Source: an uncultured bacterium
Lineage (GTDB): Bacteria > Patescibacteriota > Patescibacteriia > CAIQCM01
DNA: 64,000 bases
Assembly (NCBI GenBank): GCA_963708045.1
Contig: OY970181.1
Span: 779,537-843,536 of the forward strand
Direction of reading: 5' to 3'
Shown in pieces: positions 1,767 to 47,708 of the stretch. Both the position numbers and the translations under genes were made by a program. Below the pieces are notes generated by a model. The model had not been told where the DNA came from. It did not search any database and worked only from the letters and a program-made list of their open reading frames with translations. The number at the start of each line of letters is the position of its first letter. The first letter of the stretch is position 1.

Positions 1767-2047
1767 ATTTACGCTTAATTCTTACAAGCCACACACTACC
1801 GCGCCTGTCCCGGGTGCCTAGTCCCAGAAGTAGGCAAGCTGTTGGTAACTAAAACCTTTACATAAAGGCTTTTTATGTTAGTATTCAAATGTCTCTACTC
1901 AACTTAAGCTCGGGCTTTTGCTCGAACCGGATAGCGCGCTTTAAGCGGCATCCGGATAAAACAACTCTTGCACTATCCAGTGCTTTAGTTGGGTAGAGAC
2001 ACCTCCGGGTGTCGCTTTTGTTTTATAAGCACATCCGAATCGAAGAT

Positions 2048-3742: not shown

Positions 3743-3745
3743 ATT

Positions 3746-6076: not shown

Positions 6077-6133
6077 AGCCCTGTTGATTGAATTACCCAA
6101 ACAAATAATATAAATTAATTCGTAAAAATAATT

Positions 6134-6592
6134 ATGAATAACAATGCCAATAATCAAGAAGTCTGGGATAAAATCCTAGGCAAAGACGAGAAAGTTAAAC
6201 ACAGTTTTACAATCGGCCCACGGTATCTAAAATACAATCTTATCGCCGGTGCGATAATCTGCGTGCCGTTCGTTTTCGCGTACGGTTTTGGCGTCGTCTT
6301 GTTCTTGATTATTCTGTTCAACTACGGTTTCTACGCTAAGAAGTTGAACATCTACGCCTTTACTGATAAGCGCGTATTAATCCACAAGGGCTGGCTTTCA
6401 ACACACATGACTAGCATCGACTATTCAAAAATTACCGATGTCCATGTTCGGGAACAATTCTTGGATAAAATCGTGTACCATACGGGCGACTTGGCCATTA
6501 ATACGGCCGGAAGTGGACGATTAGAAGTCTTCCTAAGACACATCGAAAACCCGTACGAAGTGAAGAAGATTTTAGACGAACTTAAGGGCTAA
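6134..6592 (+). CDS. membrane protein with bacterial PH (bPH_2/YdbT-like, DUF304) domain
   Basis: Two predicted TM helices ('LIAGAIICVPFVFAYGFGVVLFLIILF') followed by 'YAFTDKRVLIHKGWLSTHMTSIDYSKITDVHV', which is typical of the YdbS/YdbT PH-domain family. Confidence 0.55.
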   Translation: MNNNANNQEVWDKILGKDEKVKHSFTIGPRYLKYNLIAGAIICVPFVFAYGFGVVLFLIILFNYGFYAKKLNIYAFTDKRVLIHKGWLSTHMTSIDYSKITDVHVREQFLDKIVYHTGDLAINTAGSGRLEVFLRHIENPYEVKKILDELKG

Positions 6593-6607
6593 CTCGAGGC
6601 TAATAAT

Positions 6608-6644
6608 AAAAACGCCGTCCATACTTCGCGAACGGCGTTTTTGA
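6608..6644. terminator. bidirectional rho-independent terminator-like hairpin between convergent genes
   Basis: 'aaaaacgccgt' / 'acggcgttttt' form an 8-9 bp GC-rich stem around a 13-nt loop. An A-run lies upstream and a T-run downstream. It sits between the + gene ending at 6592 and the - gene ending at 6646. Confidence 0.55.
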
Positions 6645-6645
6645 T

Positions 6646-8139
6646 TTAGATAAAGTAGACTCGCGGAACGATCGGAGGATTTTCCAAGAGACTATGGACG
6701 ACATTGGCGAAAGCGTCGGCAAGGTCATCGTGTTTTTCAACGCCGAAATGAACGATCTGTTCGATTAGACGTTCCGCCCCTTCGCGCGGGAAGAGAATTT
6801 TTCCGGTCTTAATCATGTTGGCCGTAAGCACCAGCCTACTGCGTTTGTCTTGGACTCCGGGCCTAATCGTCAGCACGCCATCAATGCCTTCATATTTAAG
6901 CTGTTGGGGCAATGCTTTTTGGTAGGCGACATCCTCGATGATCAGTTTGGGGTAATCGTAATCCTCCTTGTAGCTGTTATATAGCGTTTTACACATATCG
7001 ACCGTTTCTGGGAAGGTCATGCGCTTATTTATGATTTTAGGCAAAATATATATGCGGTATCCGTCTTCGAGTTCAAAGAGGACTCCGGGCACCATGGCCG
7101 TATAATCAGCCGCATCACTTGTTGATATGGCTGGATCAATGCCAATCCGTACCTCAAGATGCGACCGGTATCCTTGGAATAGGACAAGTCTTTCGGGAAT
7201 CTTGTCGTAGTATTGAATCCATTCGCGTTGGATGGCTTGGTCTTCGGCCGGAACGATGTTTAGGAGATACTCACGTTGCCAAGCGAATTCGTTGGCGGCT
7301 TTGCTTTTCTCTTCTTCAATTTCGGTCATTGTCGGATATTTGCCCGGCCAAATTATTGCGCCGTCGGTAATTAGGGGATAGGACTTGAAGACGCCGTTAA
7401 TCTTTTTCTTGTCGATGTCCTCTTTAAGGCGCATGAGGAGTGAGTCCTCGTGCAAGAGGTTGCCTATGATAACGAGCCGCGTATTGCGGTCGCCAGCCGG
7501 AACCACTTCTCCAGTCAGCCATTGATAGGTCTTGTTCCGACCCTCGCGTGTTTTGGTGGAGGCCAAGTCTTCAAGGTCATCGCCGATAATAAGGTCGGGA
7601 CGGTGTTGATTATGGCGTAGGCCACGGACGCTTTGTTCGGTGGAAACGGCAGTTATACGGGCATGCAAACTGGAGAAAACGAGCGACGATGCGCCCCATT
7701 CGTTATTTTCTTCTTGGAACGGTCCAAGGTCGTTTTTTAGAAGCGAATTGCTTTCAAGCTCGCGGCGCAGGTTCATCATGTGTTGTTTAGCTTGCGCTTG
7801 CGTTTGGCAAAGGATTAGCACAAACTTTTTCTTTTGCTCGCCAAGAATCGCCCAAACCGGGTATGAGGTCGTGAAGATTGTCAACTTAGCCGAACCGCGA
7901 AACGCCACAATAAACAAGTTTTTAATGTCTTGCCTTTCGCTAAGGCGAAATAGCTCGCGCTGGAATTCTGCGGTAGCATATTTCACATAATGAGCGAAGT
8001 AGAAGTGAAAGAACATGAAATGACTCTGGCGGGTGATGGCTGCGCGAACGGTTCGGTCGCGGAACATTTCGTTTGCCAACTCCGGCGGCATTCCCTTGTT
8101 TTCTTCTTGCGTCGCGTTTTTCTCGATAAAGTTTTCCAT
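6646..8139 (-). CDS. phage terminase large subunit-like protein
   Basis: C-terminal RNaseH-like nuclease motifs typical of TerL: 'GIDPAISTSDAADYTAMV' and a terminal 'HDDLADAF'. An N-terminal ATPase-like region precedes them. The start lies directly downstream of a TerS-like gene. The track start is a TTG at 8199. The first ATG at 8139 leaves a 5-nt gap to the TerS stop. Confidence 0.65.
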   Translation of the reverse strand: MENFIEKNATQEENKGMPPELANEMFRDRTVRAAITRQSHFMFFHFYFAHYVKYATAEFQRELFRLSERQDIKNLFIVAFRGSAKLTIFTTSYPVWAILGEQKKKFVLILCQTQAQAKQHMMNLRRELESNSLLKNDLGPFQEENNEWGASSLVFSSLHARITAVSTEQSVRGLRHNQHRPDLIIGDDLEDLASTKTREGRNKTYQWLTGEVVPAGDRNTRLVIIGNLLHEDSLLMRLKEDIDKKKINGVFKSYPLITDGAIIWPGKYPTMTEIEEEKSKAANEFAWQREYLLNIVPAEDQAIQREWIQYYDKIPERLVLFQGYRSHLEVRIGIDPAISTSDAADYTAMVPGVLFELEDGYRIYILPKIINKRMTFPETVDMCKTLYNSYKEDYDYPKLIIEDVAYQKALPQQLKYEGIDGVLTIRPGVQDKRSRLVLTANMIKTGKILFPREGAERLIEQIVHFGVEKHDDLADAFANVVHSLLENPPIVPRVYFI

Positions 8140-8143
8140 ATAT

Positions 8144-8620
8144 TTATTCAACGGATTTATTATTAAGATTTTCAGGTTGTTTAGAATTTTGGTCGGCAAC
8201 AGTCGGTTCCGTGGGCTGTCTTATGGTCATGGAGGCAAGCCGGAGTGCTTCTTTAACGGTCGCTTCTTGCTCCTCAGTTAGTTCTTCTTGCGGACGAGCC
8301 GCCGCTACTTCCAGTCGGTCGCGGAAGCGTGGACTTCTTTTCCTAAGCCAGAAACTGATTGCGTTAAAGTTTTGTTCTTTTATCGCGGTAATGAGCTTGG
8401 ACTCGGCCATGTCGCTCACCAGTTCGTCGCCCTCGTCGATGGCCGCATCGCAGGCCGTTGCAAAATGCGGATCTTCTTTGCGCCAGCGGTAATATGTGGC
8501 GCGGCTAACACTTGTCTTTTCGCACGAGAGCTGGACGATCGGCGTTTTCTTAAGCTGATCGATGAGTGCGATCTTTTGTTCTTTTTGTCGCTCCAAGGCG
8601 GCTTCGTTAGCGTTTTCCAT
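8144..8620 (-). CDS. phage terminase small subunit-like HTH protein
   Basis: 'CEKTSVSRATYYRWRKEDPHFATACDAAIDE...AISFWLRKRSPRFRD' matches the HTH-containing terminase small-subunit family pattern. Position immediately upstream of TerL. Confidence 0.6.
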   Translation of the reverse strand: MENANEAALERQKEQKIALIDQLKKTPIVQLSCEKTSVSRATYYRWRKEDPHFATACDAAIDEGDELVSDMAESKLITAIKEQNFNAISFWLRKRSPRFRDRLEVAAARPQEELTEEQEATVKEALRLASMTIRQPTEPTVADQNSKQPENLNNKSVE

Positions 8621-9404
8621 AGATGCTGGTCAATTTAACGGCTTTAATTCCTGTATGGTTCTCAATGCGCCTGATGATGGTTCGGCAGTACTCAATATCC
8701 GCCTCGACCATATAACAGCGTCGTTTGGTATCCTCACAGGCGATCATTGTCGAACCAGAACCGCCAAAGCCGTCGTAGACGATTTCATTGACCTTGGTGC
8801 TGTTTAGGATTAGACGGCGTAGCAACCCGACCGGCTTCATCGTTGGATGAAGCTTGCTGGCACTTGGTTTAGGATAAACAAGAATCGACTTGTCCTTTGC
8901 TTTGTGGAATTTATGCCGTCCGAACCAGCCATAGGCGATAAGTTCGTGTTGGGGTAGGTAGTCCATCCGTCCGATTACGGCGTGCGTCTTTATCCAGATC
9001 AGTAGTTGCGTAAACGCGTAGCCGGCTTCGCGCATCGCCTCGCGAAGCGCGAAGATCATCTTGTCGGAGTTGAAGATATAGACGCTGTTGTGACTCGCGA
9101 GAAACGGACGAACAGCCATAAGCCAGTCTTTGGTAAAGGCGCGGTATTCGTCGTCGGTCTGTTCGTGGTCGTTTAGGATTATTTTTTCTTTACCAAGTTT
9201 TTGCTTGAATCCGGACTTGCTTTCAACGTACCCGACGGCGTACGGCGGATCGATAACGACGGCGGCAATCTTGTCTTTTCCGATCAATGTTGCGACCGAT
9301 GACGCGTCAAGCGAACTACCGCACAAGAGGCGGTGTTCGCCGATGGCGAAAATATCGCCTTGATTAACCGATACGGACGGCTTTGTTTTTTGTGAGGGCT
9401 TCAT
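8607..9404 (-). CDS. DNA methyltransferase (N4/N6 class, DNA_methylase_N-4/N-6 domain)
   Basis: 'VVIDPPYAVGY' (DPPY motif IV) near the N-terminus and 'FGGSGSTMIACEDTKRRCYMVE' (motif I) near the C-terminus. ATG start. Confidence 0.8.
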   Translation of the reverse strand: MKPSQKTKPSVSVNQGDIFAIGEHRLLCGSSLDASSVATLIGKDKIAAVVIDPPYAVGYVESKSGFKQKLGKEKIILNDHEQTDDEYRAFTKDWLMAVRPFLASHNSVYIFNSDKMIFALREAMREAGYAFTQLLIWIKTHAVIGRMDYLPQHELIAYGWFGRHKFHKAKDKSILVYPKPSASKLHPTMKPVGLLRRLILNSTKVNEIVYDGFGGSGSTMIACEDTKRRCYMVEADIEYCRTIIRRIENHTGIKAVKLTSIYGKR

Positions 9405-10659
9405 ATCTTTTTATGATTAGGGTACAAAAGACGGGATCGATTTCACACAGAAAGGCGCGGCGCTTCATCTGCTCGCAACAGGAAAGAGTAGAGCCAGAAC
9501 CGCCGAATAAGTCCAAGACAGTATCGCCGGGTTTGGTACAACGGCGCATGGCTTTTTCATGAAGTGTCGTTGGTTTTTCCGTCGGGTGCTCGTAGTCTTG
9601 CGCCGGAAGACGTTTGACGAGCCAGATGTTAAAGAGATCGATAATGTCGTCGATGGCGCGATTACCACTCGCGACTTCTTTATTCAACACCTCGTTAAGG
9701 TTTTGTATGCGTGGTACAAGGAACGGTTTGCCGCGTGTGCCATAGACGCAAGGCTCGTATGCCTTGTTGAACGCGACTTGCGGAGTCATATTAAAGTTAT
9801 TTTTGACCCAAAGGCAGACGCGTCGATTAACAATGCCTAGTTCCTCGTATAAACTCTGAACCAATCCGATACTCGCTTCGTCGCACCAGAAGAAAACATG
9901 CGTATTCGGTTTTGCGACCGCAAGACCATTTTCCATCGCTCGCTTTAAGAATAGGCGATAGTCAGCATGCGTCTTTTTATCGTTTGTTTCACCGCCGTAT
10001 TTTCCTGATGTGCTGATGCCTTTGCTGTAATCAAGGGAAATGTTATACGGAGGGTCGCTGTAGATCATGTCGATTTGGTTTTTGCCTACCAATCGTTTAA
10101 TCAACTTCGGGTCGGTTGAGTCGGAACACAGCAAGGTATGGCTTCCCAGCCGATACATTTCGTCCAGCTTAACGGTTGGTTTTTTAATCGCGGCAAGTTC
10201 CTTTTCAGTATCAAAATCGTCGTCCTCGGCTTCAAGCGAATCGTCCCAGACATTACCCAAGTCGATATCGTCGAAACCAGCATCAAGAAGCATTTCGATA
10301 TCAAACTCCTTGAGCATCTCAAAGTCCCATGATCCGTGAGCGCGATTTAGCGTTAGATTCAACGCCTTTTCTTTTTCGATATTCGGTATGTTCACGAAGA
10401 CCGCCGGAATTTCGGTGATGCCAAGTTCCTTTGCGCAGGCAACCCGCATATGGCCACCGATTAGGACGCCTTTCCGCGCAGGCGCGGAATTGACCAGCAC
10501 AGGATCAACTAACCCGTACTTTAAGATGCTTTCTTTTAACGTCGCCTTTTCGGACTCTGACCATTTTCTGGGGTTATAGATGGCCGGTTGTAACGATCCG
10601 ATCGGGATATATTGAACGGCGATTTTTGTGTCGTCGTGAGTTAGTATATTTTTTGGCAT
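9364..10659 (-). CDS. ParB-like nuclease domain fused to DNA methyltransferase (phage-type ParB-MTase)
   Basis: N-terminal ParB/Srx-like segment 'IPIGSLQPAIYNPRKW...GGHMRVACAKELG'. It is followed by 'MIYSDPPYNISLDY' and 'DLFGGSGSTLSCCEQMKRRAFLCE' MTase motifs. The track start (10725) is a TTG. The first ATG is at 10659. Confidence 0.8.
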   Translation of the reverse strand: MPKNILTHDDTKIAVQYIPIGSLQPAIYNPRKWSESEKATLKESILKYGLVDPVLVNSAPARKGVLIGGHMRVACAKELGITEIPAVFVNIPNIEKEKALNLTLNRAHGSWDFEMLKEFDIEMLLDAGFDDIDLGNVWDDSLEAEDDDFDTEKELAAIKKPTVKLDEMYRLGSHTLLCSDSTDPKLIKRLVGKNQIDMIYSDPPYNISLDYSKGISTSGKYGGETNDKKTHADYRLFLKRAMENGLAVAKPNTHVFFWCDEASIGLVQSLYEELGIVNRRVCLWVKNNFNMTPQVAFNKAYEPCVYGTRGKPFLVPRIQNLNEVLNKEVASGNRAIDDIIDLFNIWLVKRLPAQDYEHPTEKPTTLHEKAMRRCTKPGDTVLDLFGGSGSTLSCCEQMKRRAFLCEIDPVFCTLIIKRYEALTKNKAVRIG

Positions 10660-10701
10660 ATTTTTAGAAGAGATATGAAGAGTAAGCACAGAAATAAAAA
10701 T

Positions 10702-10763
10702 GCCCACCTCGCGGAGATGAGTCAAAATCTAAAAAGACTTTGGTTAATCTCTGCGAAGTGGGC
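10702..10763 (-). terminator. long stem-loop (17-bp imperfect stem) followed by a T-run on the minus strand
   Basis: 'gcccacctcgcggagat' (10702-10718) pairs with 'atctctgcgaagtgggc' (10747-10763) with 2 mismatches. On the minus strand the stem is followed by 'attttta ttt'. It lies between the 149-aa minus-strand ORF and the ParB-MTase gene. Confidence 0.35.
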
Positions 10764-15222: not shown

Positions 15223-16545
15223 ATGCTATTCATAACAATGCATTTTAAAATTCATATGCCCGGCCACATTGATACCGATATCCAATATTGCCTCTACGCG
15301 AGAAAAAGTACCGAATCGGAAGAACGCCAATCGCTATCAATAGAATCCCAGATTAAAGAAATGACCCGGGTCGCAGAACGTGATCGGTTGGTTATTAAAG
15401 AAATCAAACGCGAAAGCCGGTCGGCAAAATCACACGGCGGTCGTCAGGTTTTTAACGATCTCATCAACGAAATTAGCCAAGGTAAATTTACCGGCATCGT
15501 CGCTTGGTCGCCGGATCGGTTAAGTCGCAATGCAGGTGATTTAGGTGTCTTGGTAGATTTGATGGATGCTGGAAAGCTTTTAGAAATTCGGACTTTTAAC
15601 CAAAGATTTACAAATTCGCCAAACGAAAAGTTTTTACTCATGATCTTGGGTAGCCAGGCCAAACTTGAGAATGATAATCGGAGCGTTAACGTAAAGCGGG
15701 GGATGCGGGCGCGGGTTGAGATGGGGTTATGGCCGGGAGTGTCACCGCTGGGCTATCTTAATCAATACCGAACCGATAAGAAGTGCGAGATTATAGTTGA
15801 TGAAGCTCGTGCACCAATAATCAAGCAGATGTTCAAGAAAGTCGCCGACGAAAAATGGACAACGCGCGATATACATAAATGGCTTAAGGATACCGGTTTT
15901 AAAACTCGTGGAGATAAACCCCTCGCTTATAGCGGTGTGCAGCGAATGCTGACGAACTCTTTTTACTACGGAAGATTTGAATACCCAAGGAACAGCGGCA
16001 AATGGCATACCGGTAAACACGAGCCGATAATTACCAAAGATTTATTCGAACGGACACAACAAAGATACCGCCGCCTTTCTTATAAAAGTAAAGTAAGGGA
16101 ATTTTCATTCGTTCGGCTTTTTACCTGCGGCCTTTGCGGATCTGGAATATCCGCCAGCGAAAAGTTTAAAAATCTCAGCGACGGCACGGTTGCGCGTTAT
16201 ATTTATTACAACTGCAACCTCGGTAAAGATAGGTTTTGTAAAAATACATCTATTAGGGAGGAGGAGCTAATTAAGGAGTTGATTAAGGTTGTCGATACTG
16301 CCGAAATTGACGAACTTGGTATCCGTCATAAATTTGAAAATGAAGTTGAACGATTTGGAAAATTCAACAATTACATTCTCGGAAAACCTACTGATCTAAA
16401 GCCCGAAGAAATTGACATAAATATCCGCGCGTACGCCAAGTATGTCCTCATGGACGGATCAAAAAGCGAAAAACGAGAGCTGCTCGGCCACCTGCGAAGT
16501 CGCTTGGTTTATACGCACAAAAGGTTTAAGCTACTCCCGTCTTAA
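15223..16545 (+). CDS. large serine recombinase, paralog of the 456..1766 gene
   Basis: 'YCLYARKSTESEERQSLSIESQ', 'DRLSRN', and zinc ribbon 'CGLCGSG...YYNCNLGKDRFC'. It aligns by eye along its whole length with the first recombinase (roughly half identical). Orientation is inverted relative to the first. Confidence 0.9.
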   Translation: MLFITMHFKIHMPGHIDTDIQYCLYARKSTESEERQSLSIESQIKEMTRVAERDRLVIKEIKRESRSAKSHGGRQVFNDLINEISQGKFTGIVAWSPDRLSRNAGDLGVLVDLMDAGKLLEIRTFNQRFTNSPNEKFLLMILGSQAKLENDNRSVNVKRGMRARVEMGLWPGVSPLGYLNQYRTDKKCEIIVDEARAPIIKQMFKKVADEKWTTRDIHKWLKDTGFKTRGDKPLAYSGVQRMLTNSFYYGRFEYPRNSGKWHTGKHEPIITKDLFERTQQRYRRLSYKSKVREFSFVRLFTCGLCGSGISASEKFKNLSDGTVARYIYYNCNLGKDRFCKNTSIREEELIKELIKVVDTAEIDELGIRHKFENEVERFGKFNNYILGKPTDLKPEEIDINIRAYAKYVLMDGSKSEKRELLGHLRSRLVYTHKRFKLLPS

Positions 16546-19522: not shown

Positions 19523-20437
19523 ATGGTATTAGTTTTTGACAGAACAAAAATTAGTAATTCTTTTTATGGGATGGAAGTATATAAACGTGTTTTACCAGCG
19601 ATCTCTCTCTATTGCCTAGATAGTTCGCACTGTGTTCTGCATGGTGATTATTTGGCAGTCACTGGTCACGAGGTAAAACAAAAGAGTGATTTATTTTCTA
19701 AAATTGTACAGTGCAATACAACAAATTATGTTAGACCGAATCAATATTTTTTGGTTTATATAAATAATTTAACAAAGCACATGTTGGCAGGTATCAATAA
19801 ATCTTTGATGCTTTACGATGCTTATATTGGCTATGCTGATACTTCGACCTTTTCTCGCTTCAAATCGTACTTATCAACTACGCTACCGCAATCTTTTATT
19901 TGGTTTAGAAAAACCGCGTTAATGGCCCATGAGGATGATAGGCCAAACTCAGAAGATGTTAATACACAATGTCTGCCTGAAGAAGGTTTGAAAATACGTA
20001 GCATTCAATCGCTATATTATGGCGTTTTTCTATCATATAAAATTCAAAGACCAGTGTTGTCTTTGCTAGAAGTTGATAATTTGATTTCGTTAAACGCAAT
20101 TAGCGATAAGCCAGTAAGCTTATTGAATTTTGATGTGCGTCTTGAAGAGTCAAAACTTCAATATCTTCTAACGAACAAGAGGGAAAGCCTTGAACGGTTA
20201 GGCCTGGCGAACTCCGATACGAAGAAAATATCTGCCCTCATCAAAAATAGGTTAAATTCCGGATACCTTTATAATCTTAGAATTATCGAGCCGAATGGTA
20301 AAAAAGTGATGCTATTTAATATTCAATTAGAAAAAATAAACGGGGTCAGTTCTGATTTTCGCGCTGTTGTTAGTATAAGCAGACAAAAATTATCTTTTTG
20401 TTATGCAAAAAAATTGTTGTGTGTTAGAGGTGTATAA
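19523..20437 (+). CDS. hypothetical protein (304 aa)
   Basis: Long ORF. No motif. Its 3' end contains the left copy of the REP-like repeat. Confidence 0.45.
   Translation: MVLVFDRTKISNSFYGMEVYKRVLPAISLYCLDSSHCVLHGDYLAVTGHEVKQKSDLFSKIVQCNTTNYVRPNQYFLVYINNLTKHMLAGINKSLMLYDAYIGYADTSTFSRFKSYLSTTLPQSFIWFRKTALMAHEDDRPNSEDVNTQCLPEEGLKIRSIQSLYYGVFLSYKIQRPVLSLLEVDNLISLNAISDKPVSLLNFDVRLEESKLQYLLTNKRESLERLGLANSDTKKISALIKNRLNSGYLYNLRIIEPNGKKVMLFNIQLEKINGVSSDFRAVVSISRQKLSFCYAKKLLCVRGV
20342..20354 (-). repeat. REP-like repeat copy (reverse complement of CAGAACTGACCCC), left flank of the Y1 transposase gene
   Basis: 'ggggtcagttctg' at 20342-20354. It is inverted relative to the copy at 21178. Confidence 0.5.
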
Positions 20438-20497
20438 CAGTTTCATTGAAAAATGAAGATAAAAATTAGATGATGGCATAAATAGTATTTTATTTTT

Positions 20498-21178
20498 ATG
20501 CCTAGACCTCCACGGATCAAAGCTCCAAATTTGTTATTTCACATTATGAATCGTGGAAATGGGCGACAGCGCGTCTTTTATTCTGATAAGGCGTACAAAG
20601 AATTTTATGAGATCATGATCCGTTATAAAAAATTGTTTCCAATCAAAATATTTCACTACGTTTTAATGCCTAATCATTTTCATTTGTTGGTTGAATCGGA
20701 AAACGAGACGGCGATTTCAAAGTTTATGCAACGCGTCACCTTGTCGCATACGCGCCGGTTTAACTTGAAATATCATACAGTTGGCCACCTGTGGCAAGGT
20801 CGATTTAAAAGCATTTTGATTGATTCTGATGAATACTATCTCCAATGCGGACGCTACATTGATCTAAATCCGATTCGTGCGAAATTGGTAGAACATCCGT
20901 CAGAGTGGCGTTGGAGTAGTTATGGGGCTTTGGCGAACGGCGCGAAAGAACAGCTTGTTGATTTTCATCCTCTGTATGTTGCTTTGGGAAATGATAAAAA
21001 TATTAGGCAAAAAAATTACGCGAGATTTGTTAAAATGGAAATAGATGCTTCGCGGTTAAATAATGCGATGCGTTTTTCGGAAAAATATTTTTATGGGAAA
21101 GATGAGTTTATCGAACAGATTAAAGAAAAATATTTTGTAGTCATCCCGCGTCCGAAGGCTGGTAGGCCGCGAAATTAG
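20498..21178 (+). CDS. tnpA: Y1/HUH tyrosine transposase (IS200-like / REP-associated tyrosine transposase family, Y1_Tnp)
   Basis: 'IFHYVLMPNHFHLLVE' is the HUH motif (H-F-H flanked by hydrophobics). 'WQGRFKSILIDSDEYYLQCGRYIDLNPIRAKLVEHPSEWRWSSY' contains the conserved catalytic-Tyr region of the IS200/RAYT family. Confidence 0.8.
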   Translation: MPRPPRIKAPNLLFHIMNRGNGRQRVFYSDKAYKEFYEIMIRYKKLFPIKIFHYVLMPNHFHLLVESENETAISKFMQRVTLSHTRRFNLKYHTVGHLWQGRFKSILIDSDEYYLQCGRYIDLNPIRAKLVEHPSEWRWSSYGALANGAKEQLVDFHPLYVALGNDKNIRQKNYARFVKMEIDASRLNNAMRFSEKYFYGKDEFIEQIKEKYFVVIPRPKAGRPRN

Positions 21179-21191
21179 AACTGACCCCATT
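21176..21191 (+). repeat. REP-like repeat copy TAGAACTGACCCCATT, overlapping the tnpA stop codon
   Basis: Identical core 'GAACTGACCCCATT' also at 21999-22012. A degenerate copy 'gacttgaccccatt' is at 23683-23696. Confidence 0.5.
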
Positions 21192-21246
21192 ATTAAATAG
21201 CCCCGCCGTTGGAAGACGGGCGGGGCTTGTACCATTTAGCGCCGAG

Positions 21247-21268
21247 GACGGAAGTCTCCGTCTTTTTA
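21247..21268 (+). terminator. rho-independent terminator downstream of tnpA
   Basis: 'gacgga' 'agtc' 'tccgtc' followed by 'ttttta'. It is flanked by two further perfect hairpins (21199-21227 with a 9-bp stem; 21292-21313 with a 9-bp stem). Confidence 0.5.
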
Positions 21269-21344
21269 CGCGAGCAGGTCTCGTAGAATTCGCTTGCTTC
21301 GTATGAAGCAAGCCTGTGGTCAAGATACTCTCATTGTTTGTTTG

Positions 21345-21731
21345 TTAGTCGTTTAGCGGCAGGACAAGCGTTGCGACGTAATCACACTCACGTATCAGCG
21401 AACATCCATAGTAACTTCCATGGCGTCCACGTATCTCGGTGGCAGAGGTGAACGTTCCAGAAACTATATAGCCGTCCGTGGGACATTCTGTGCCATCAGC
21501 TCCCCAGCCGTGGACGCAGCTGAATGTTCCGCAGGTCACGCGAAAAAAGGCGGCAATGCCCTCCGAGAAAGTAATTTGCAAAAGTCCGGTGGAGCTATTG
21601 TGAGACAGGTTGAGAGAGAAATCATTATACAAGTAAGTATCGGTGCCTGCGTCCGGTACAAGGGCAGTCATTTTGTAAATACCTGTATTCGGTTTCTCGT
21701 AGCCGCATGTTGCGGGTGTTGTTTTAAGCAC
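21345..21731 (-). CDS. hypothetical Cys-containing protein (128 aa)
   Basis: Minus-strand ORF between the tnpA terminator and the ars promoter region. Several Cys and Gly/Thr-rich segments. No motif. Confidence 0.3.
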   Translation of the reverse strand: MLKTTPATCGYEKPNTGIYKMTALVPDAGTDTYLYNDFSLNLSHNSSTGLLQITFSEGIAAFFRVTCGTFSCVHGWGADGTECPTDGYIVSGTFTSATEIRGRHGSYYGCSLIRECDYVATLVLPLND

Positions 21732-21996
21732 GCCGTCTTTGTCTGTTGCGGGAGAAATACAACCGCAAAAAGAGGCAAAGCATACGTAAATCGAAAGTTT
21801 TGTTCATTTCCTTCTTCCTGTAATTGATAGGCTAGGTCGTTTTTTACGCGTTGTCAATGATAGTCATAAGTAAATGTGGTTAGTTTTAATTTTCACGACG
21901 TTGTAGTATAAACAGACATAAATTATCTTTTTGTTGAAAGTTGTTGAAAGCCGATCGGGGTCAATTAAATTTTTTTTAACATATCACACATCAATC

Positions 21997-22012
21997 AGAA
22001 CTGACCCCATTG
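21997..22012 (+). repeat. REP-like repeat copy CAGAACTGACCCCATT
   Basis: Exact 15/16 match to the copy at 21176. It is preceded at 21953-21960 by an inverted partial copy 'cggggtca' that could pair with it. Confidence 0.5.
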
Positions 22013-22036
22013 TTATGGTTTAATTCACGCTATTTA

Positions 22037-22070
22037 CTATATCAATATATGTTGATATAGTAATCAACAT
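22037..22070. promoter_or_regulatory. candidate ArsR operator: two overlapping perfect inverted repeats directly upstream of arsR
   Basis: P1 is 'ctatatcaa-tatatg-ttgatatag' (9-bp arms, 22037-22060). P2 is 'atgttgat-atagta-atcaacat' (8-bp arms, 22049-22070). The arsR ATG is at 22076. ArsR/SmtB operators are AT-rich imperfect inverted repeats that overlap their own promoter. Confidence 0.45.
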
Positions 22071-22075
22071 AAAAT

Positions 22076-22381
22076 ATGACGCCAAAATGTTGTCTTAACA
22101 AAAGGTCATTTGTTGAGCTTGACGATACGGTCAAATTTTTAAAGGTTGTAGCTGATGAAAATCGGTTAAAAATTTTGTGTATGCTTCGGTCGGGGGAAAA
22201 GTGTGTTTGCGAAATTTGGAAATTTCTTAATCTCTCGCAAAACCTTACCTCGCATCACTTAAAGGTATTAAAATCTTTTGGTTTGGTTTGCGACAGAAAA
22301 GATGGACTTAATGTATATTATTCAATTAACAAAGGTGAAATCGTTAAATACGATTCATTATTAACAAAATTTTTACGATGA
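22076..22381 (+). CDS. arsR: ArsR/SmtB-family metalloregulatory transcriptional repressor
   Basis: Winged HTH 'ADENRLKILCMLRSGEKCVCEIWKFLNLSQNLTSHHLKVLKSFGLV' with the Cys pair 'CVC' at the metal-sensing position of the alpha3 helix. Confidence 0.8.
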   Translation: MTPKCCLNKRSFVELDDTVKFLKVVADENRLKILCMLRSGEKCVCEIWKFLNLSQNLTSHHLKVLKSFGLVCDRKDGLNVYYSINKGEIVKYDSLLTKFLR

Positions 22382-22382
22382 T

Positions 22383-22682
22383 ATGAGCAATAATAAAATT
22401 CAGGTTTTAGGTTCTGGCTGTCATTCGTGCAAGAAGTTGTTTGAACTTACAAAACAGGCAGTGCGGGAGCTGGGGATTGATACCGAAGTTGAATATATTA
22501 CCGACATCCAAAAAATCATAGAGATGGGCGTGATGCAGAGCCCGGTGCTAGCTATAAACGGCAAACCAGTAATGGCCGGATCGGTATCGGACATAGAAAG
22601 AATAAAAGAGCTGATAACTAATCAGCCCAACAGTTCTATATCCAGTAATACACCGTCCTGCAATTGCGGAGGTAATTGTTAG
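22383..22682 (+). CDS. thioredoxin-fold small redox-active disulfide protein (Thioredoxin_3-like)
   Basis: 'KIQVLGSGCHSCKKLFE' CxxC motif in a roughly 80-aa thioredoxin-like protein. This is a common partner of ArsP/DUF318 permeases. The start lies 1 nt after the arsR stop. Confidence 0.65.
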   Translation: MSNNKIQVLGSGCHSCKKLFELTKQAVRELGIDTEVEYITDIQKIIEMGVMQSPVLAINGKPVMAGSVSDIERIKELITNQPNSSISSNTPSCNCGGNC

Positions 22683-22691
22683 TCCAAGTCT

Positions 22692-23669
22692 ATGGATATT
22701 TTTTACCCGATACAATTACTGGCGGATTTCATTAACCGCCTGATCGGCTTAGAAAAAACATCGTATTTTGGGAGTGCAACTAATTTTTTTGTTTACGACA
22801 CGATTAAAATTGGTCTATTACTGGTTGTTATAAATTACGTAATGGCCATCACCCGTTACTATTTCCCGATGGAAAGGGCTAGGAATATTCTAACCAAGAA
22901 ACGCTGGTTCGGGTTAAATTACCTAATGGCCGCCGTGCTCGGCATAGTTACGCCGTTCTGTTCATGCTCGTCAATTCCGCTTTTCATCGGATTCGTGGGG
23001 GCGGGGATACCGATGGGAATAACCTTTGCCTTTTTAATCAGCTCACCCCTCATCAACGAATCGTCGCTATATTTATTTCCGGCGATGTTCGGTTGGAAAG
23101 TGACGATCTTATACAACTTGTTCGGACTGGCGATTGCAATAATTGGAGGCATGATTATTCAAAAACTTAATGTAGAAAAATATATTATTCCAGAATTGTT
23201 GAAATTCAAATCACGATCTCAGATTGAAGCGGAAAACGGTAACAAGAAGCTTTCATTTGAGAAACTTGTTTCATATTTTTGGAAAGACGGAATGAAGATT
23301 ACAAAACAAATTTTCCCTTATGTTATTTTAGGGGTCGGGGTCGGGGCGATTATCCACGGTTTTGTGCCGAGCGGTTTAGTTGAACGCTATCTATCCGCCA
23401 AAGCATGGTGGACTGTGCCCTTGGCTGTTATTTTAGGCGCCCCGCTTTACGCCAACTCAGTAAGTGTAATTCCTATAATGGAGGCGCTCGTTGGGAAAGG
23501 CGCCCCGCTTGGTACGGTTCTGGCCTTTATGACGGCAATAGTGACGCTTTCTATTCCTGAAGCCTTGATACTTAAAAAAGTCATGCGTTGGCAATTGCTT
23601 GCCATATTTTTTGGCATAACCACTATTGGAATAGTGGTTATGGGATATTTGTTTAATGCAATTTTCTAA
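22692..23669 (+). CDS. arsP: ArsP-type (DUF318) permease, putative organoarsenical efflux permease
   Basis: Polytopic membrane protein with the 'TPFCSCSSIPLF' motif (the TPFCSC motif described for ArsP). It is in an operon with arsR. Confidence 0.65.
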   Translation: MDIFYPIQLLADFINRLIGLEKTSYFGSATNFFVYDTIKIGLLLVVINYVMAITRYYFPMERARNILTKKRWFGLNYLMAAVLGIVTPFCSCSSIPLFIGFVGAGIPMGITFAFLISSPLINESSLYLFPAMFGWKVTILYNLFGLAIAIIGGMIIQKLNVEKYIIPELLKFKSRSQIEAENGNKKLSFEKLVSYFWKDGMKITKQIFPYVILGVGVGAIIHGFVPSGLVERYLSAKAWWTVPLAVILGAPLYANSVSVIPIMEALVGKGAPLGTVLAFMTAIVTLSIPEALILKKVMRWQLLAIFFGITTIGIVVMGYLFNAIF

Positions 23670-23756
23670 CAAATACTGGACTTGACCCCATTATTTTGGC
23701 GGTTATAGAATATCGGAGTATGCTTGAAGAAAAATCGTACCTAATTTTATTTCTTT

Positions 23757-32400: not shown

Positions 32401-35400
32401 GCCTCGGCCGCGACTTCGGTCACAGCTACCGGCGCCGCATTGAATGGCAATATCACAGCTGATGGCGGAGTCGCTCCGACCGCCAGAGGTTTTCATTATG
32501 GAACTACAGCTGCATACGGCTCGACCTCTTCCACGACCGGCACATATACCACGGGCACATATTCTCAAAGCATTACCGGCTTGACCTGCAATACCCTTTA
32601 TCATTACCGATCTTTTGCCACCAACTCGGCCGGTACCGCCACCTCGACGGACAGCACCTTCACCACCTCGGCGTGCTCCGCACCGGGAGCGCCGACCAGT
32701 GTTGTTGCGACAGGTGGCAATGCGCAAGCATCCGTCGCTTTCACGGCTCCGGCAAACGACGGTGGCTCGGCAATAACCGGCTACACCGTCACCTCAAGTC
32801 CGGGAAGTTTTACCGGCACAGGAAGTGCTTCGCCAATTGTCGTCACCGGACTCACGAACGGCACGGCATACACTTTCACAGTTACCGCGACGAATGCGAT
32901 CGGTACGGGTGCGGCTTCGACCCCCTCGAGTTCGATTACTCTGTCTACTGGAACAGGACCGCTCATTTCATCGGCGGCATCGCAGATGTTTTTGACGGGT
33001 AGTGCCGCGGCTGCGATTTCTACGATAACCGTAACCGACAATACTCTTACTCCGTACATAACGGCCGCTAACGACATCCGCATCAAAATTCCTTCTGGCT
33101 TCAACATGGTCTGGGATTCGACGGATACCGCCGCCACTATTGGTGGAGCGGCGTCAGCTCATGTATCGGGAACGGTTTCGTACGAAGACGCGGATAAGAC
33201 CCTGGTCATTAATGTCAGCGAAAATTTTGCTGTTAGCGACGTAATAACCATTTCCGGCCTGTCTTTCAAGACCTTCAGCGCGGCGTCCGTGGCCGATAAT
33301 TTGGAATTGGAGGTCAACAATGCCGGCACGACAATCGCCGTGGATGACAAGACGATTTCCATCACCGCAGTGACTGTTTCTTCTGCTGCTAACCAGACAT
33401 TTACCGTCGCAGATCCGACAACCGCGATGTCGCAAATTACCGTCACTGACAGCGCTTCGTCTCCGTATATAACGGCTACCAACGACATCAGGATCAAAAT
33501 TCCAGCCGGCCTCGACATGACTTGGGATGCAGCTGCTTTGGGAAGCGTTGTTATTGGCGGCGCAGCATCGGCCAAGATTAGCACCTCGGGAGGTCTTGAT
33601 TCGCCGTACACGCCGATCGTTAACTTGCACAGGGCGAACTTGCACGGGCATACCACGAATAGCGACGGCGCCCAGACGGCGTTCGGCCTACATGACTTCA
33701 TATTTGAACCTCGGTTATTCGGCGGCCGCCATCACTGATCACGATTATTTCACGCCCAACCCGAGCGTTTCTGGCATTACCCACGTGAGGGGTGTTGAGA
33801 ACACGGCCAATGCCGCCGGTGGAATGGGGGATATGGCTTCGTTTGGCATAACTTCATTTTTGTCGTCAAACAGGCAGACACAGGTCGATACCTATACGAG
33901 CCAAGGAGGTGTTTCTAGCGTCAACCATCCTATCACCGGTTGGACTAACGCCGGCACGGTGAATTTGAATGGCTACACAAATATGGAAGTCTTCAACTCC
34001 CATTACGGGGATTTGGAGCCGTATGTTGACTATGCGTTAAGCAACGGCAAACAGTTTTGGCTTGTTGCGAACGATGACCTTCATACTACTATTCAGATAT
34101 ACCGTGCTTGGAACGAGTTAAACAGCTCAAAGACCGTCGGAAACCTTACCGAAGCCGATGTCGTGAATATAATAAAAAGCGGCGATTTCTATGCTTATGG
34201 CAGAGGGGACAGAAGCAATGCTCCTGCTGCAGATCAACAGTACGGCAGTTTGCCGACCCCAGCTAAGTTTACGGGCATTACGGTGAGTGGTTACGCGGTT
34301 ACCGCTAATATCGATAAGAGCGCCAACATACAATTCATCACGAAAAACGGGACGATTTCGCAAACCAACAATAGTGTGACGACAGCCAGCTATACAGCGT
34401 CGCTCACTGATATTTATGTCAGGGTAAAGGTGTCCTACACTTCCGGGGGAAAAACCGCATACTCATTCAGCAACCCGATTTACATAACGGAGTCGGGCCC
34501 GGCGGCAGTTTCTTTGGAAGACAGCGGCAAGACGCTGGTCATCGATGTTGGAACTAACTTTGTTGCAGGTGACGCAATAACTATTTCGGGATTAAAATTC
34601 AACAACTTTACTACAGCGGGTTCCGGTAATTTGACCTTGTCGGTTAGCGGATCGGGAGCCACGGTAAATGACACTGACGACAAAACGATAACCATTGAAT
34701 CGGGATTACTGACCCCGACCGCTTCCATCACCAACACACCCCGGTCATACAACGGCTCGGCTCAAACCGCGACTGTCGCCTGTACAGGCGGAGGCACTGC
34801 CACGATCGCATCGGGCGGAACCGGAACTGATGCAGGGTCGTATGCGACCACGGTGAACTGCGCCGCGAGCGCTGGCTATGAAGCTGCGACAGGACTTTCA
34901 GCAGGAAACTTTGTTATCTCCAAAGCAACTCCAACTGCCTCCATCACCAACACACCCCGGTCATACAACGGCTCAGCTCAGACGGCGAACGTTGCTTGTT
35001 TAGGTGGAGGCGCCGCTACAATAAACACTGGCGGAACTGGCACCAATGCTGGTTCATACGCAACCACGGTTGATTGCGCCACGAGCACTAACTACTCCGC
35101 AGCAACAGGACTTTCAGCAGGGAACTTTGTTATTGAAAAAATAGCCCCTACTGCTTCCATCACTAATTCGTCTCAGCCATACACTGGCTCAGCGCAGACC
35201 GCGACTGTTGCTTGCTTGGGTGGAGGAACTGCCACGCTTGCGTCAGGTGGAACCGGAACTGATGCAGGTTCGTATGCAGCCACCGTCAACTGTGCCACGA
35301 GCACCAATTATTCCGCAGCTACGGGACTTTCAGCAGGAAATTTCGTTATTGAAAAAATAGCTCCGACTGCTTCTATCACCAACACGCCACGGTCATACAC

Positions 35401-38400
35401 CGGCTCAGCTCAGACGGCGAACGTTGCTTGTTTAGGTGGAGGCGCCGCTACAATAAACACCGGTGGAACTGGCACAAGCGCTGGTTCATACGCAACCACG
35501 GTTGATTGTGCCACGAGCACTAACTACTCTGCAGCAACAGGACTCTCAGCGGGAAATTTCGTTATTGAAAAAATAGCTCCAACTGCCTCCATCACCAACA
35601 CGCCTCAGTCATACAACGGCTCGTCGCAAACCGCGAACGTTGCTTGTTTAGGTGGAGGAACTGCCACGCTTGCCTCAGGTGGAACTGGAACTGATGCAGG
35701 ATCGTATGCAGCCACCGTCAACTGCGCCGCGAGCACCAACTACTCTGCAGCAACAGGACTTTCGGCAGGAAATTTCGTCATTGAAAAAATAACTCCAACT
35801 GCTTCCATCACCAACACGCCTCAGTCATACAACGGCTCGTCGCAAACCGCGAACGTTGCTTGTTTAGGTGGAGGAACTGCCACGCTTGCCTCAGGTGGAA
35901 CTGGAACTGATGCAGGTTCATACGCAACCACGGTTGATTGTGCTACGAGCACCAACTACTCTGCAGCAACAGGACTCTCGGCCGGAAACTTCGTCATTTC
36001 CAAAGCAACTCCGACTGCTTCCATCACCAACACGCCCCGGTCATACAATGGTTCAGCTCAAACCGCGACCGTCGCCTGTACGGGCGGAGGCGCCGCTACA
36101 ATAAACACCGGTGGAACTGGCACAAGCGCTGGTTCATACGCAACCACAGTTGATTGTGTTGCAAGCACAAACTACTCCGCCGCCACGGGACTTTCGGCGG
36201 GTGACTTCGTCATTTCCAAAGCAACTCCAACTGCCTCCATCACCAACACACCCCGGTCATACAATGGTTCAGCTCAAACCGCGACTGTTGCTTGTTTGGG
36301 TGGAGGTGCCGCTACAATAAACACTGGCGGAACTGGCACCAATGCTGGAACATACGCAACCATGGTTGATTGCGCCACAAGCACCAACTACTCTGCAGCC
36401 ACCGGACTTTCAGCAGGGAACTTTGTTATTGAAAAAATAGCTCCAACTGCTTCCATCACCAACACACCCCGGTCATACAATGGTTCAGCTCAAACCGCGA
36501 CTGTTGCTTGTTTGGGTGGAGGTGCCGCTACAATAAACACGGGTGGAACTGGCACCAATGCTGGAACATACGCAACCACGGTTGATTGCGCCACAAGCAC
36601 CAACTATAATGCCGCCACCGGATTATCGGCAGGCGACTTCGTAATCTCTAAGATTGCTCCTACCGCTTCCATCACCAATTCGTCTCAGCCATACACTGGC
36701 TCAGCGCAGACGGCGACTGTTGCTTGTTTAGGTGGAGGCGTTGCCACGCTTGCGTCAGGTGGAACTGGAACTGATGCAGGATCGTATGCAGCTATAGTTG
36801 ATTGCGCCACAAGCACCAACTACTCTGCAGCCACCGGACTTTCAGCAGGGAACTTTGTTATTGAAAAAATAGCTCCAACTGCTTCCATCACTAATTCGTC
36901 TCAGCCATACACTGGCTCAGCGCAGACTGCGACTGTCGCCTGTACAGGCGGAGGCGCCGCTACAATAAACACCGGTGGAACTGGCACAAGCGCTGGTTCA
37001 TACGCAACCACGGTTGATTGTGCCACGAGCACCAACTACTCCGCAGCAACAGGACTCTCGGCAGGAAATTTCGTTATTGAAAAAATAGCCCCAACTGCTT
37101 CCATCACTAATTCGTCTCAGCCATACACTGGCTCAGCGCAGACCGCGACTGTTGCTTGTTTAGGTGGAGGCGTTGCAACGCTTGCCTCAGGCGGAACCGG
37201 AACTGATGCAGGTTCGTATGCAGCCACCGTCAACTGCGCCGCGAGTACCAACTACAATGCCGCCACCGGATTATCGGCAGGCGACTTCGTAATCTCTAAG
37301 ATTGCTCCTACTGCCTCCATCACCAATTCGCCTCAGTCATACAACGGCTCAGCGCAGACTGCGACTGTCGCCTGTACAGGCGGAGGCGCCGCTACAATAA
37401 ACACCGGTGGAACTGGCACAAGCGCTGGTTCATACGCAACCACAGTTGATTGTGTTGCAAGCACAAACTACTCCGCCGCCACGGGACTTTCGGCGGGTGA
37501 CTTCGTCATTTCCAAAGCAACTCCAACTGCCTCCATCACCAACACACCCCGGTCATACAATGGTTCAGCTCAAACCGCGACTGTTGCTTGTTTGGGTGGA
37601 GGTGCCGCTACAATAAACACTGGCGGAACTGGCACCAATGCTGGAACATACGCAACCATGGTTGATTGCGCCACAAGCACCAACTACTCTGCAGCCACCG
37701 GACTTTCAGCAGGGAACTTTGTTATTGAAAAAATAGCTCCAACTGCTTCCATCACTAATTCGTCTCAGCCATACACTGGCTCAGCTCAGACCGCGACTGT
37801 TGCTTGTTTAGGTGGAGGCGTTGCCACGCTTGCGTCAGGTGGAACTGGAACTGATGCAGGATCGTATGCAGCTATAGTTGATTGCGCCACAAGCACCAAC
37901 TACTCTGCAGCCACCGGACTTTCAGCAGGGAACTTTGTTATTGAAAAAATAGCTCCAACTGCTTCCATCACTAATTCGTCTCAGCCATACACTGGCTCAG
38001 CGCAGACTGCGACTGTCGCCTGTACAGGCGGAGGCGCCGCTACAATAAACACCGGTGGAACTGGCACCAATGCTGGAACATACGCAACCATGGTTGATTG
38101 CGCCACAAGCACCAACTACTCTGCAGCCACCGGACTTTCAGCAGGGAACTTTGTTATTGAAAAAATAGCTCCAACTGCTTCCATCACTAATTCGTCTCAG
38201 CCATACACTGGCTCAGCTCAGAACCGCGACTGTTGCTTGTTTAGGTGGAGGCGTTGCCACGCTTGCGTCAGGTGGAACTGGAACTGATGCAGGATCGTAT
38301 GCAGCTATAGTTGATTGCGCCACAAGCACCAACTACTCTGCAGCCACCGGACTTTCAGCAGGGAACTTTGTTATTGAAAAAATAGCTCCAACTGCTTCCA

Positions 38401-47140: not shown

Positions 47141-47195
47141 ATCAGATCTTTAGCCTCCGACTCTCCTCCTAGATAACATCAAAGGGGAGAGTTTT
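47141..47195 (+). repeat. 55-bp direct repeat, copy 1, containing a terminator-like hairpin
   Basis: 'atcagatctttagcctccgactctcctcctagataacatcaaaggggagagtttt' is identical to 47654-47708. Internal stem 'gactctcc'/'ggagagt' followed by T's. Confidence 0.7.
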
Positions 47196-47653: not shown

Positions 47654-47708
47654 ATCAGATCTTTAGCCTCCGACTCTCCTCCTAGATAACATCAAAGGGG
47701 AGAGTTTT
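47654..47708 (+). repeat. 55-bp direct repeat, copy 2
   Basis: Identical to 47141-47195. Confidence 0.7.

Follow-up and report, generated by a model that had tools for sequence, protein, structure and literature searches.

A probable TIRtron in a patescibacterial genome: a Y1/HUH gene of the RAYT branch bracketed by GGGGWSAS inverted repeats

A probable TIRYT gene and its inverted repeats in Patescibacteria

Within a 64,000-nt stretch of contig OY970181.1 from an uncultured bacterium of the Patescibacteriota (positions 779,537–843,536, hereafter referred to as the window), a gene encoding a 226-aa Y1/HUH enzyme lies between two short inverted repeats. This locus is very probably a TIRtron, i.e., one TIRYT gene bracketed by terminal inverted repeats (TIRs) of 17–23 nt with an outer GGGGWSAS motif, accompanied by decayed derivatives of those repeats. 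TIRtrons are a known and little-studied kind of element, and the locus is a further example, situated in Patescibacteria (Candidate Phyla Radiation, CPR), rather than a new system. As described by Di Nocera 2013 (BMC Genomics 14:522, PMC3733652), the terminal inverted repeats on either side of TIRYT genes have GGGG[AT][CG]A[CG] in common, and repeat copies occur as singles, dimers, and clusters, with the TIR family being moderately abundant in the genome for only some TIRtrons. Quentin et al. 2018 linked TIRYT genes to subclass 2.1 of the TnpA-Y1 enzymes (PMC6006769).

The locus shares with the described TIRtrons (PMC3733652) a Y1/HUH gene resembling that of REP-associated tyrosine transposases (RAYTs; REP, repetitive extragenic palindrome), TIRs with GGGGWSAS at a fixed distance from the coding sequence, a right repeat that may overlap the 3′ end of the gene, and extra copies in single, dimeric, or clustered form. 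It differs from them by its CPR host, by the lack of a detectable helix-turn-helix (HTH), and by extra copies that were seen only locally. The features concerned are the following:

20498–21178, plus strand: TIRYT gene, 226-aa Y1/HUH enzyme (hidden Markov model [HMM], motif, and fold matches)
20339–20358, plus strand: left terminal inverted repeat, copy A, AACGGGGTCAGTTCTGATTT (core GGGGTCAG fits GGGGWSAS)
20356–20402, plus strand: leader segment just inside the left repeat, containing the 32-nt direct repeat 20371–20402
21172–21195, minus strand: right terminal inverted repeat, copy B, AAATTAGAACTGACCCCATTATTA, overlapping the stop codon TAG (21176–21178)
21870–21935, plus strand: degenerate left-end duplicate (3-mismatch motif match at 21873–21886; repeat-pair search)
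21957–21966, plus strand: partial repeat copy E, GGGGTCAATT (core-motif scan)
21993–22015, minus strand: repeat copy C, AATCAGAACTGACCCCATTGTTA, 91% identical to copy B
23674–23696, minus strand: degenerate solo copy D, TACTGGACTTGACCCCATTATTT, beginning 5 nt past the arsP stop codon (23669)

The encoded protein falls on the RAYT side of the Y1 enzymes

The initial annotation had proposed a Y1/HUH transposase at 20498–21178, and the 226-aa protein was indeed matched by the Pfam model Y1_Tnp (PF01797, E 1.7e-16). The NCBIfam model REP_Tyr_transpos (NF047646) scored 80.0 bits, exactly at its cut-off of 80, while the IS200 model NF033573 stayed below its cut-off (27.5 vs. 55 bits). These scores, the motifs, and the nearest solved structure (4ER8) all place the protein on the RAYT side, and the gene is assigned from its sequence to the RAYT branch of the Y1/HUH enzymes rather than to the IS200 transposases.

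Specifically, the HuH motif is formed by N59-H60-F61-H62 and is followed by W99-Q100, the catalytic Y120 within YIDLNP, and S140-S141, with the C-terminus reading AGRPRN and being AT-hook-like. In a 35-sequence family alignment, H60, H62, and Y120 were invariant and the conserved C-terminal end was (R/K)xGRPRK; judged by its residues, the protein has retained an intact HUH motif and catalytic tyrosine. For an AlphaFold model (pLDDT 88, pTM 0.84), Foldseek ranked 4ER8, a complex of TnpA-REP with a REP hairpin, first in the PDB (E 3.8e-9), with ISDra2 and then IS608 TnpA next; in agreement with Foldseek, a profile search of PDB sequences likewise put 4ER8 nearest.

The motif set NHFH / WQ / YIDLNP / SS and the length of 226 aa match subclass 2.1 in Table 1 of Quentin 2018, where NHVH or NH[YF]H, W[EQ], YIELNP or Y[IV]HLNP, and SS are listed together with a median of 238 aa and the entry “no REP”, neither automatic nor manual searches having turned up REPs in this subclass (PMC6006769). 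Subclass 2.1 corresponds to Bertels RAYT group 1 (PMC6006769, PMC5581495), which is the most widely distributed RAYT group and occurs in 21 bacterial classes (PMC5581495). The protein is predicted to be a member of this subclass and group, of an HTH-less type, a placement made by motifs and homologue context rather than by the authors' HMM/MCL/phylogeny procedure. It shares NH[VYF]H, W[EQ], the YIELNP-type motif, the SS tail, a length near ~238 aa, low copy number, and the lack of REPs with the group, and departs from it by one conservative change (YIDLNP for YIELNP). Because RAYT group 1 spans 21 bacterial classes, the occurrence of such a gene outside Proteobacteria, which had been considered worthy of note, is unsurprising.

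An exact protein look-up found no record of the 226-aa sequence itself. Its nearest proteins are 43–59% identical and, where named, stem from Uhrbacteria, Magasanikbacteria, other Patescibacteria, and Omnitrophota. Searches of 5.8 billion clustered proteins and, separately, of 1.84 billion cluster representatives gave top full-length matches of 59% identity; the only closer match was a C-terminal fragment (99% identical) that stems from this locus in a different sample. The family comprises 15,845 representatives at the 50% identity level (E ≤1e-10). None of 35 family members had a Pfam match, at E up to 1, to Bac_DnaA_C, HTH_23, or HTH_28, by which the HTH-bearing subgroup 2.1.2 is recognised; in place of a detectable C-terminal HTH, the family tail is a conserved extension ending in GRPRK.

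Repeat copies cluster around the gene

As anticipated, inverted copies of a short motif stand on either side of the gene, at 20339–20358 and 21172–21191 (20 nt, 90% complementary, 813 nt apart). The opening of the window repeat, GGGGTCAG, is an exact fit to GGGGWSAS, and this core is found in copies A, B, and C. Copy A, in which GGGGTCAGTTCTG starts at 20342 just as the initial annotation had it, ends 140 nt 5′ of the start codon and lies within the 3′ end of an open reading frame (ORF) at 19523–20437. For the inverse copy over the stop codon, the proposed overlap stands and the proposed sequence does not, since it reads TAGAACTGACCCC rather than CAGAACTGACCCC, its first base being T instead of C. 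Similarly, CAGAACTGACCCCATT does recur, at 21996–22011 rather than at 21997, and the degenerate copy expected after arsP was found as GGACTTGACCCCATT at 23677–23692, 8 nt past the arsP stop codon. Two remnants, GGGGTCAATT at 21957–21966 and GTGGTTAG at 21876–21883, were absent from that annotation. The first of them (copy E) and copy C, which sits 61 nt 5′ of arsR, make up a gene-less inverted dimer (21957 plus / 22008 minus), which spans 54 nt between its outer ends and has one decayed arm.

The second remnant belongs to a duplication of the left end of ~68 nt (20336–20402 vs. 21870–21935, ~81% identical), in which the repeat part has decayed to GTGGTTAGTTTTAATTTTC (21876–21894) and the leader 20356–20402 reappears at 21889–21935. 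Its best-preserved stretch is a 32-nt direct repeat (30/32 identical, 94%), which had been noticed as a repeat of roughly 30 bp at 20378 and 21905 and is placed here at 20371–20402 and 21904–21935. This direct repeat was rejected as an independent element, as it belongs to the ~68-nt left-end duplicate. The leader may be a promoter or leader region; a promoter scan at the duplicated leader yielded nothing beyond the shuffled expectation.

The motif GAACTGACCCCATT was located at 20339–20352 (minus strand, 1 mismatch), 21178–21191 (exact), 21998–22011 (exact), and 23679–23692 (2 mismatches). By chance, ~5e-4 exact matches to a 14-mer would be expected in 128 kb (two strands), compared with the two exact and one 1-mismatch occurrences seen, and the observed count at ≤3 mismatches was matched in 0/100 shuffles. 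Eight of the 14 matches at ≤3 mismatches are part of an unrelated coding tandem repeat at 35–40 kb. The six copies or remnants all occur no more than 3.4 kb from the gene, with none in the other ~60 kb of the window. Taken by itself, the 8-mer GGGGWSAS shows no enrichment in the window (14 sites vs. ~16 expected). What is non-random in the window is only the clustering of full-length copies within 3.4 kb. For a genome of ≥1 Mb (of which the window is ~5%), the lack of copies in the other ~60 kb allows for a few tens of copies genome-wide at most.

A longer pairing between copies A and C (33 nt, 79%) was not favoured as the “true” ends, because the right repeat abuts the stop codon family-wide, as copy B does. 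A likeness of GGGGTCAG to Tn3-family ends (GGGGTCTGA) was treated as coincidence; there was no DDE transposase among the annotated ORFs of the window.

The repeats accompany the gene across phyla

Homologous loci were drawn from among the matches listed, 80 from species-representative genomes and 80 from metagenomes, and four CPR loci (L001, L082, L083, and L084) were added by exact look-up; the surveyed loci omit the closest relatives (55–59% identical). In each case, the 300 nt preceding the gene were compared with the sequence spanning and following the stop codon. Of 140 genes from many phyla, 116 had a cognate inverted repeat of ≥12 nt in their flanks, divided as follows:

Genome set: 78 genes; cognate repeat in 63 (median 19.5 nt); non-cognate pairing in 14; shuffled in 5
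Metagenome set: 62 genes; cognate repeat in 53 (median 21 nt); non-cognate pairing in 21

In the genome set, GGGGWSAS was present in the right orientation upstream of 50/78 genes and downstream of 50/78, vs. 5–6/78 in the wrong orientation; for the 62 metagenome genes these counts were 32 upstream and 29 downstream vs. 7 and 9. Hosts included Proteobacteria, Acidobacteria, Planctomycetes, Omnitrophota, Saccharibacteria, TA06, Bipolaricaulota, and others. The left repeat begins a median of 70 nt before the start codon, while the right repeat reaches a median of 21 nt (often only 4 nt) beyond the stop codon, measured to its outermost base, and mostly abuts or overlaps the stop codon across the family, as in the window. 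The repeat ends hold a fixed register relative to the stop codon. Locus L001 (CPR, 48% identical) is laid out in the same way around CAGACCTGACACC; one gene farther downstream it has a third, degenerate copy, an arrangement paralleling that of the window. A Magasanikbacteria relative carries the flanking repeat GGGGACAGTTCTAAA.

Many loci have further copies of their own repeat within 10 kb on each side, often as plus/minus dimers 48–70 nt apart (e.g., L013, L021, L039 with 20 copies in 20 kb, L044 with 27 copies, L066, and L068), and the window pair 21957/22008 has the geometry of these dimers. Such pairs resemble the REPINs of Bertels & Rainey 2011 in consisting of two inverted units around a short spacer; unlike REPINs, the units are of the TIR type rather than palindromic REPs, and their mobility is inferred.

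Some loci showed arrangements of their own. In L082 (Magasanikbacteria metagenome-assembled genome, JACTTX010000013.1), the repeat is a tandem doublet GGGGACAGTTCTAAAGGGGACACTTCTAAATT at 9511–9542, 9932–9963, and 10648–10679; the left doublet includes the clpB stop codon, and a third identical doublet lies inside the clpB ORF (7342–9945) and is read through in another frame, therefore constituting an intragenic repeat insertion. In L046 (Stutzerimonas zhaodongensis), divergent paralogues are clustered within 10 kb (4091–10702), as is also the case in L044, L034, L035, L067, and L077, and most of the L046 and L044 paralogues with scored flanks have their own GGGGWCAG repeat variant.

The repeats are not REP hairpins but may form a weak stem

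The REPs of E. coli, present in hundreds of copies, fold into stable GC-rich hairpins and carry a 5′ GTAG guide, whereas the window repeats are 17–23 nt long, flanked by A/T, and not stable hairpins. The GT[AG]G foot and the CGTC tag are absent from all window copies, and, contrary to what might have been expected of REP-like copies, none of them folded better as single-stranded DNA (ssDNA), on either strand, than dinucleotide-shuffled sequence (z –1.3 to +1.9). A search of the whole window against Rfam at gathering thresholds also gave no match. A REP hairpin reading of the copies was rejected on these grounds, i.e., no copy more stable than shuffled sequence and no GT[AG]G. Of the REP/RAYT interpretation in the initial annotation, the RAYT branch is thus upheld at superfamily level, while the “REP” designation is not.

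When 179 unique flanking repeats were anchored at GGGG, an A-rich 5′ flank and a T-rich segment after ~13 nt emerged. Positions –1 to –6 paired with +13 to +18 at a frequency of 0.60 in upstream and 0.59 in downstream repeats, compared with 0.49 and 0.46, respectively, for permuted 3′ halves (z 6.9 and 7.7, in a statistic that takes no account of relatedness and may be inflated). Most other loop registers gave |z| ≤1; loops of 12 and 14 reached z 3–4, a loop of 10 reached 2.7 (upstream set), and a loop of 17 reached 1.8 (downstream set), all under the peak at 13. About a quarter of the 99 genome-set flanking repeats contain 5–10 bp stems of differing sequence (e.g., atcaat/attgat, aaaacc/ggtttt, and ggaaat/atttcc), mostly closing the 13-nt loop GGGGWCAGNNNNN. 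In the window, copies A and B have three A·T pairs in the 13-nt-loop register, and in copy C a 4-bp stem caat/attg closes the 13-nt loop GGGGTCAGTTCTG. As a lead, this weak stem suggests hairpin-type recognition as in other Y1 enzymes, and its family-wide occurrence with a 13-nt loop is possibly a new detail.

Weighing the TIRtron reading against its rivals

The TIRtron reading builds on the architecture of the locus, the conservation of the repeats with the gene across phyla, the intact HUH motif and tyrosine, and the TnpA-REP-like fold. A number of points nevertheless weigh against it. The TIRYTs of the literature (subclass 2.1) carry a C-terminal HTH, while no HTH is detectable with Pfam here, and a putative assignment to subgroup 2.1.1 derives from motifs rather than from the authors' HMMs. 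The window repeats are confined to 3.4 kb around the gene without a dispersed family being seen; the copies are not thermodynamically stable hairpins, their stems counting only 3–4 A·T pairs; and the pairing statistic may be inflated, as mentioned above. In the literature library searched, the term TIRYT appears in only two papers, and no biochemistry on a TIRYT was encountered there; binding, cleavage, and mobility are what we infer. Finally, Logan sample ERR12035931 contains a 99%-identical strain in which two separate ORFs (101 and 120 aa) are called over the 681-nt span of the gene. On the 2216-bp contig of that strain, which is equivalent to window positions ~19847–22062, the 304-aa ORF upstream of the gene is split as well (24 and 171 aa). 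These split ORFs suggest strain-level decay of the locus, and in that population the gene may be dispensable and decaying rather than active.

One rival is a canonical REP/RAYT system (REPtron/REPIN), in which a dispersed palindrome is mobilised by a single-copy RAYT. It would account for the REP_Tyr_transpos score exactly at the cut-off, for TnpA-REP as the nearest structure, and for an inverted pair around the gene with extra copies at gene boundaries and one inverted dimer. Indeed, E. coli TnpA-REP (RayT/YafM, 4ER8) is the closest solved fold, sharing HUH and a single tyrosine, and its gene in the E. coli REPtron is also flanked by inverted copies of the presumed substrate; in contrast to the window protein, it has 165 aa and DHLH / WE / YIHYNP. 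However, the window copies have no GT[AG]G or CGTC tag and do not fold beyond shuffled sequence, the protein motifs are those of subclass 2.1, where no REPs were found, and the other ~60 kb contain no copies, which makes this reading very unlikely.

Alternatively, the repeats might be duplex protein-binding sites with a regulatory or structural role, the Y1 protein being domesticated and no longer performing strand transfer. Their precise position at gene boundaries (over a stop codon, 61 nt before arsR, and 5 nt after arsP) would suit such a role, as would the A- and T-tracts flanking the cores together with the AT-hook-like GRPRK at the family's C-terminal end, and the fact that RAYTs in general act like vertically inherited host genes. 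We consider this very improbable, though, since the HUH histidines and catalytic tyrosine are invariant family-wide and would argue for retained catalysis, the inverted bracketing conserved across phyla is the layout of an enzyme and its substrate, and arsR has a separate perfect palindrome as its probable operator (22035–22060).

An autonomous insertion sequence (IS) of the IS200/IS605 type, or an IS-like mobile TIRtron moving as gene plus ends, is highly improbable: the Y1_Tnp fold, surroundings rich in mobile-element genes, the IS-like traits of some Bertels group 1 members (6.3% duplicates and 1.2% on plasmids, PMC5581495), and clustered paralogues in some genomes (e.g., L046 and L044) speak for it, but the IS200 model is below its cut-off, the motif is YxxxNP rather than YxxxQ, the protein has 226 rather than ~150 aa, the ends are inverted and unfolded rather than directly oriented subterminal hairpins, there is a single copy in 64 kb, no target-site duplication is present at 20338/21192, and the best matches (apart from the 99% same-locus fragment) are only 59% identical, so that there is no sign of recent multi-copy spread. 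With IS608 and ISDra2 TnpA, the protein shares the Y1/HUH fold and presumably the ssDNA chemistry; the multi-copy state, directly oriented subterminal hairpins, YxxxQ, and ~150 aa of the IS200/IS605 elements are all lacking here.

A possible mechanism

If the locus is a TIRtron, its enzyme would, by analogy with TnpA-REP and IS200/IS605 TnpA, act when the repeat DNA becomes single-stranded, binding one strand and cutting it at or beside the repeats. Such breakage and rejoining could now and then create or move copies and dimers, the resulting dimers would be REPIN-like non-autonomous elements, and the TIRYT gene itself would stay essentially single-copy. Recognition may proceed via a weak A·T stem presenting the 13-nt loop GGGGWCAGNNNNN or, alternatively, on duplex DNA with the A/T tracts being contacted by the C-terminal GRPRK. 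The AT-hook-like C-terminus and the A/T tracts around the core suggest such an additional duplex contact.

More speculatively, the TIRs of subclass 2.1 might, instead of being simple duplex ends, represent a third class of REP-like single-strand signals, with the enzyme reading and cutting a covarying, mostly A·T stem of ~4–7 bp and a 13-nt loop opening with a nearly invariant GGGGWCAG, and with copies and dimers forming an active REPIN-like population; we hold this for a tentative possibility that is rather doubtful as it stands. If true, the dimers (the 21957/22008 pair and those in many phyla, some of them inside genes, e.g., clpB in L082) would be a REPIN-like population that includes streamlined CPR genomes.

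Locus context and further observations in the window

From left to right, the locus consists of the left repeat, the leader, the gene, the right repeat, a minus-strand Cys-rich gene, the decayed left end with its leader, and the inverted dimer, followed by the probable arsR operator, arsR, a thioredoxin-like gene, the ArsP permease gene, the degenerate solo copy, and a NUDIX gene. The upstream ORF (19523–20437, plus strand, 304 aa, no Pfam match) has its last ~32 codons encoded by the left repeat and leader, and its C-terminus may have been created by the element.

The small Cys-rich ORF (21345–21806, minus strand) has a good ribosome-binding site and an ATG at 21806 that are one base out of frame with a 128-aa ORF, and removing one A of AACAAAAC would yield the lipoprotein-like signal peptide MNKLSIYVCFASFCGC. 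Exact proteins of neighbouring genes are present in Logan samples ERR15459707 and ERR12035931, and in the latter the Cys-rich gene is called intact (153 aa); the window copy is therefore frameshifted or contains a sequencing error.

The perfect 10-bp palindrome at 22035–22060 (ACTATATCAA-tatatg-TTGATATAGT) overlaps a promoter-like –35/–10 pair upstream of arsR (22076) and probably serves ArsR as the operator of an operon made up of arsR, the thioredoxin-like gene, and arsP. A break in the Logan contig at ~22035–22062 was rejected as a sign of repeat multiplicity, as it coincides with this palindrome, which might by itself be enough to interrupt a k-mer assembly graph.

The left third of the window contains two large serine recombinases, two N6/N4 DNA methylases (one fused to ParB_N), and a ResIII helicase:

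456–1766 (minus strand), 15223–16545 (plus strand), 2009–6076, and 9364–10725: serine recombinase/methylase/ResIII region

This region looks like an integrated mobile element or defence island, and the TIRtron is therefore located within or next to DNA with many mobile-element genes. Farther to the right, giant ORFs of 1023–1586 aa at 33527–42825 have 51–57% GC (vs. ~40% in the flanks) and a coding tandem repeat, within which GAACTGGCACCAAT occurs eight times from 35034 to 39801. The 24-nt GATAACATCAAAGGGGAGAGTTTT is present at 47172–47195 and 47685–47708, 513 nt apart, and its copies may be duplicated ribosome-binding or leader regions. The best named relatives of the glycogen synthase encoded in the window (60–62% identical) belong to Wolfebacteria, Giovannonibacteria, Sungbacteria, and other Parcubacteria, which places the genome in Patescibacteria/CPR.

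Implications

With regard to annotation, such genes should not be named IS200 or REP-associated transposases without checking their flanks. The 140-gene survey further indicates that the HTH-less ~225-aa clade also has GGGGWSAS inverted ends, and these ends, together with the stop-codon register and the 13-nt-loop stem, provide a concrete substrate design for a first in vitro test of a TIRYT. For the branch of RAYT-like enzymes that is the largest and least studied, the locus supplies a CPR/Patescibacteria example.

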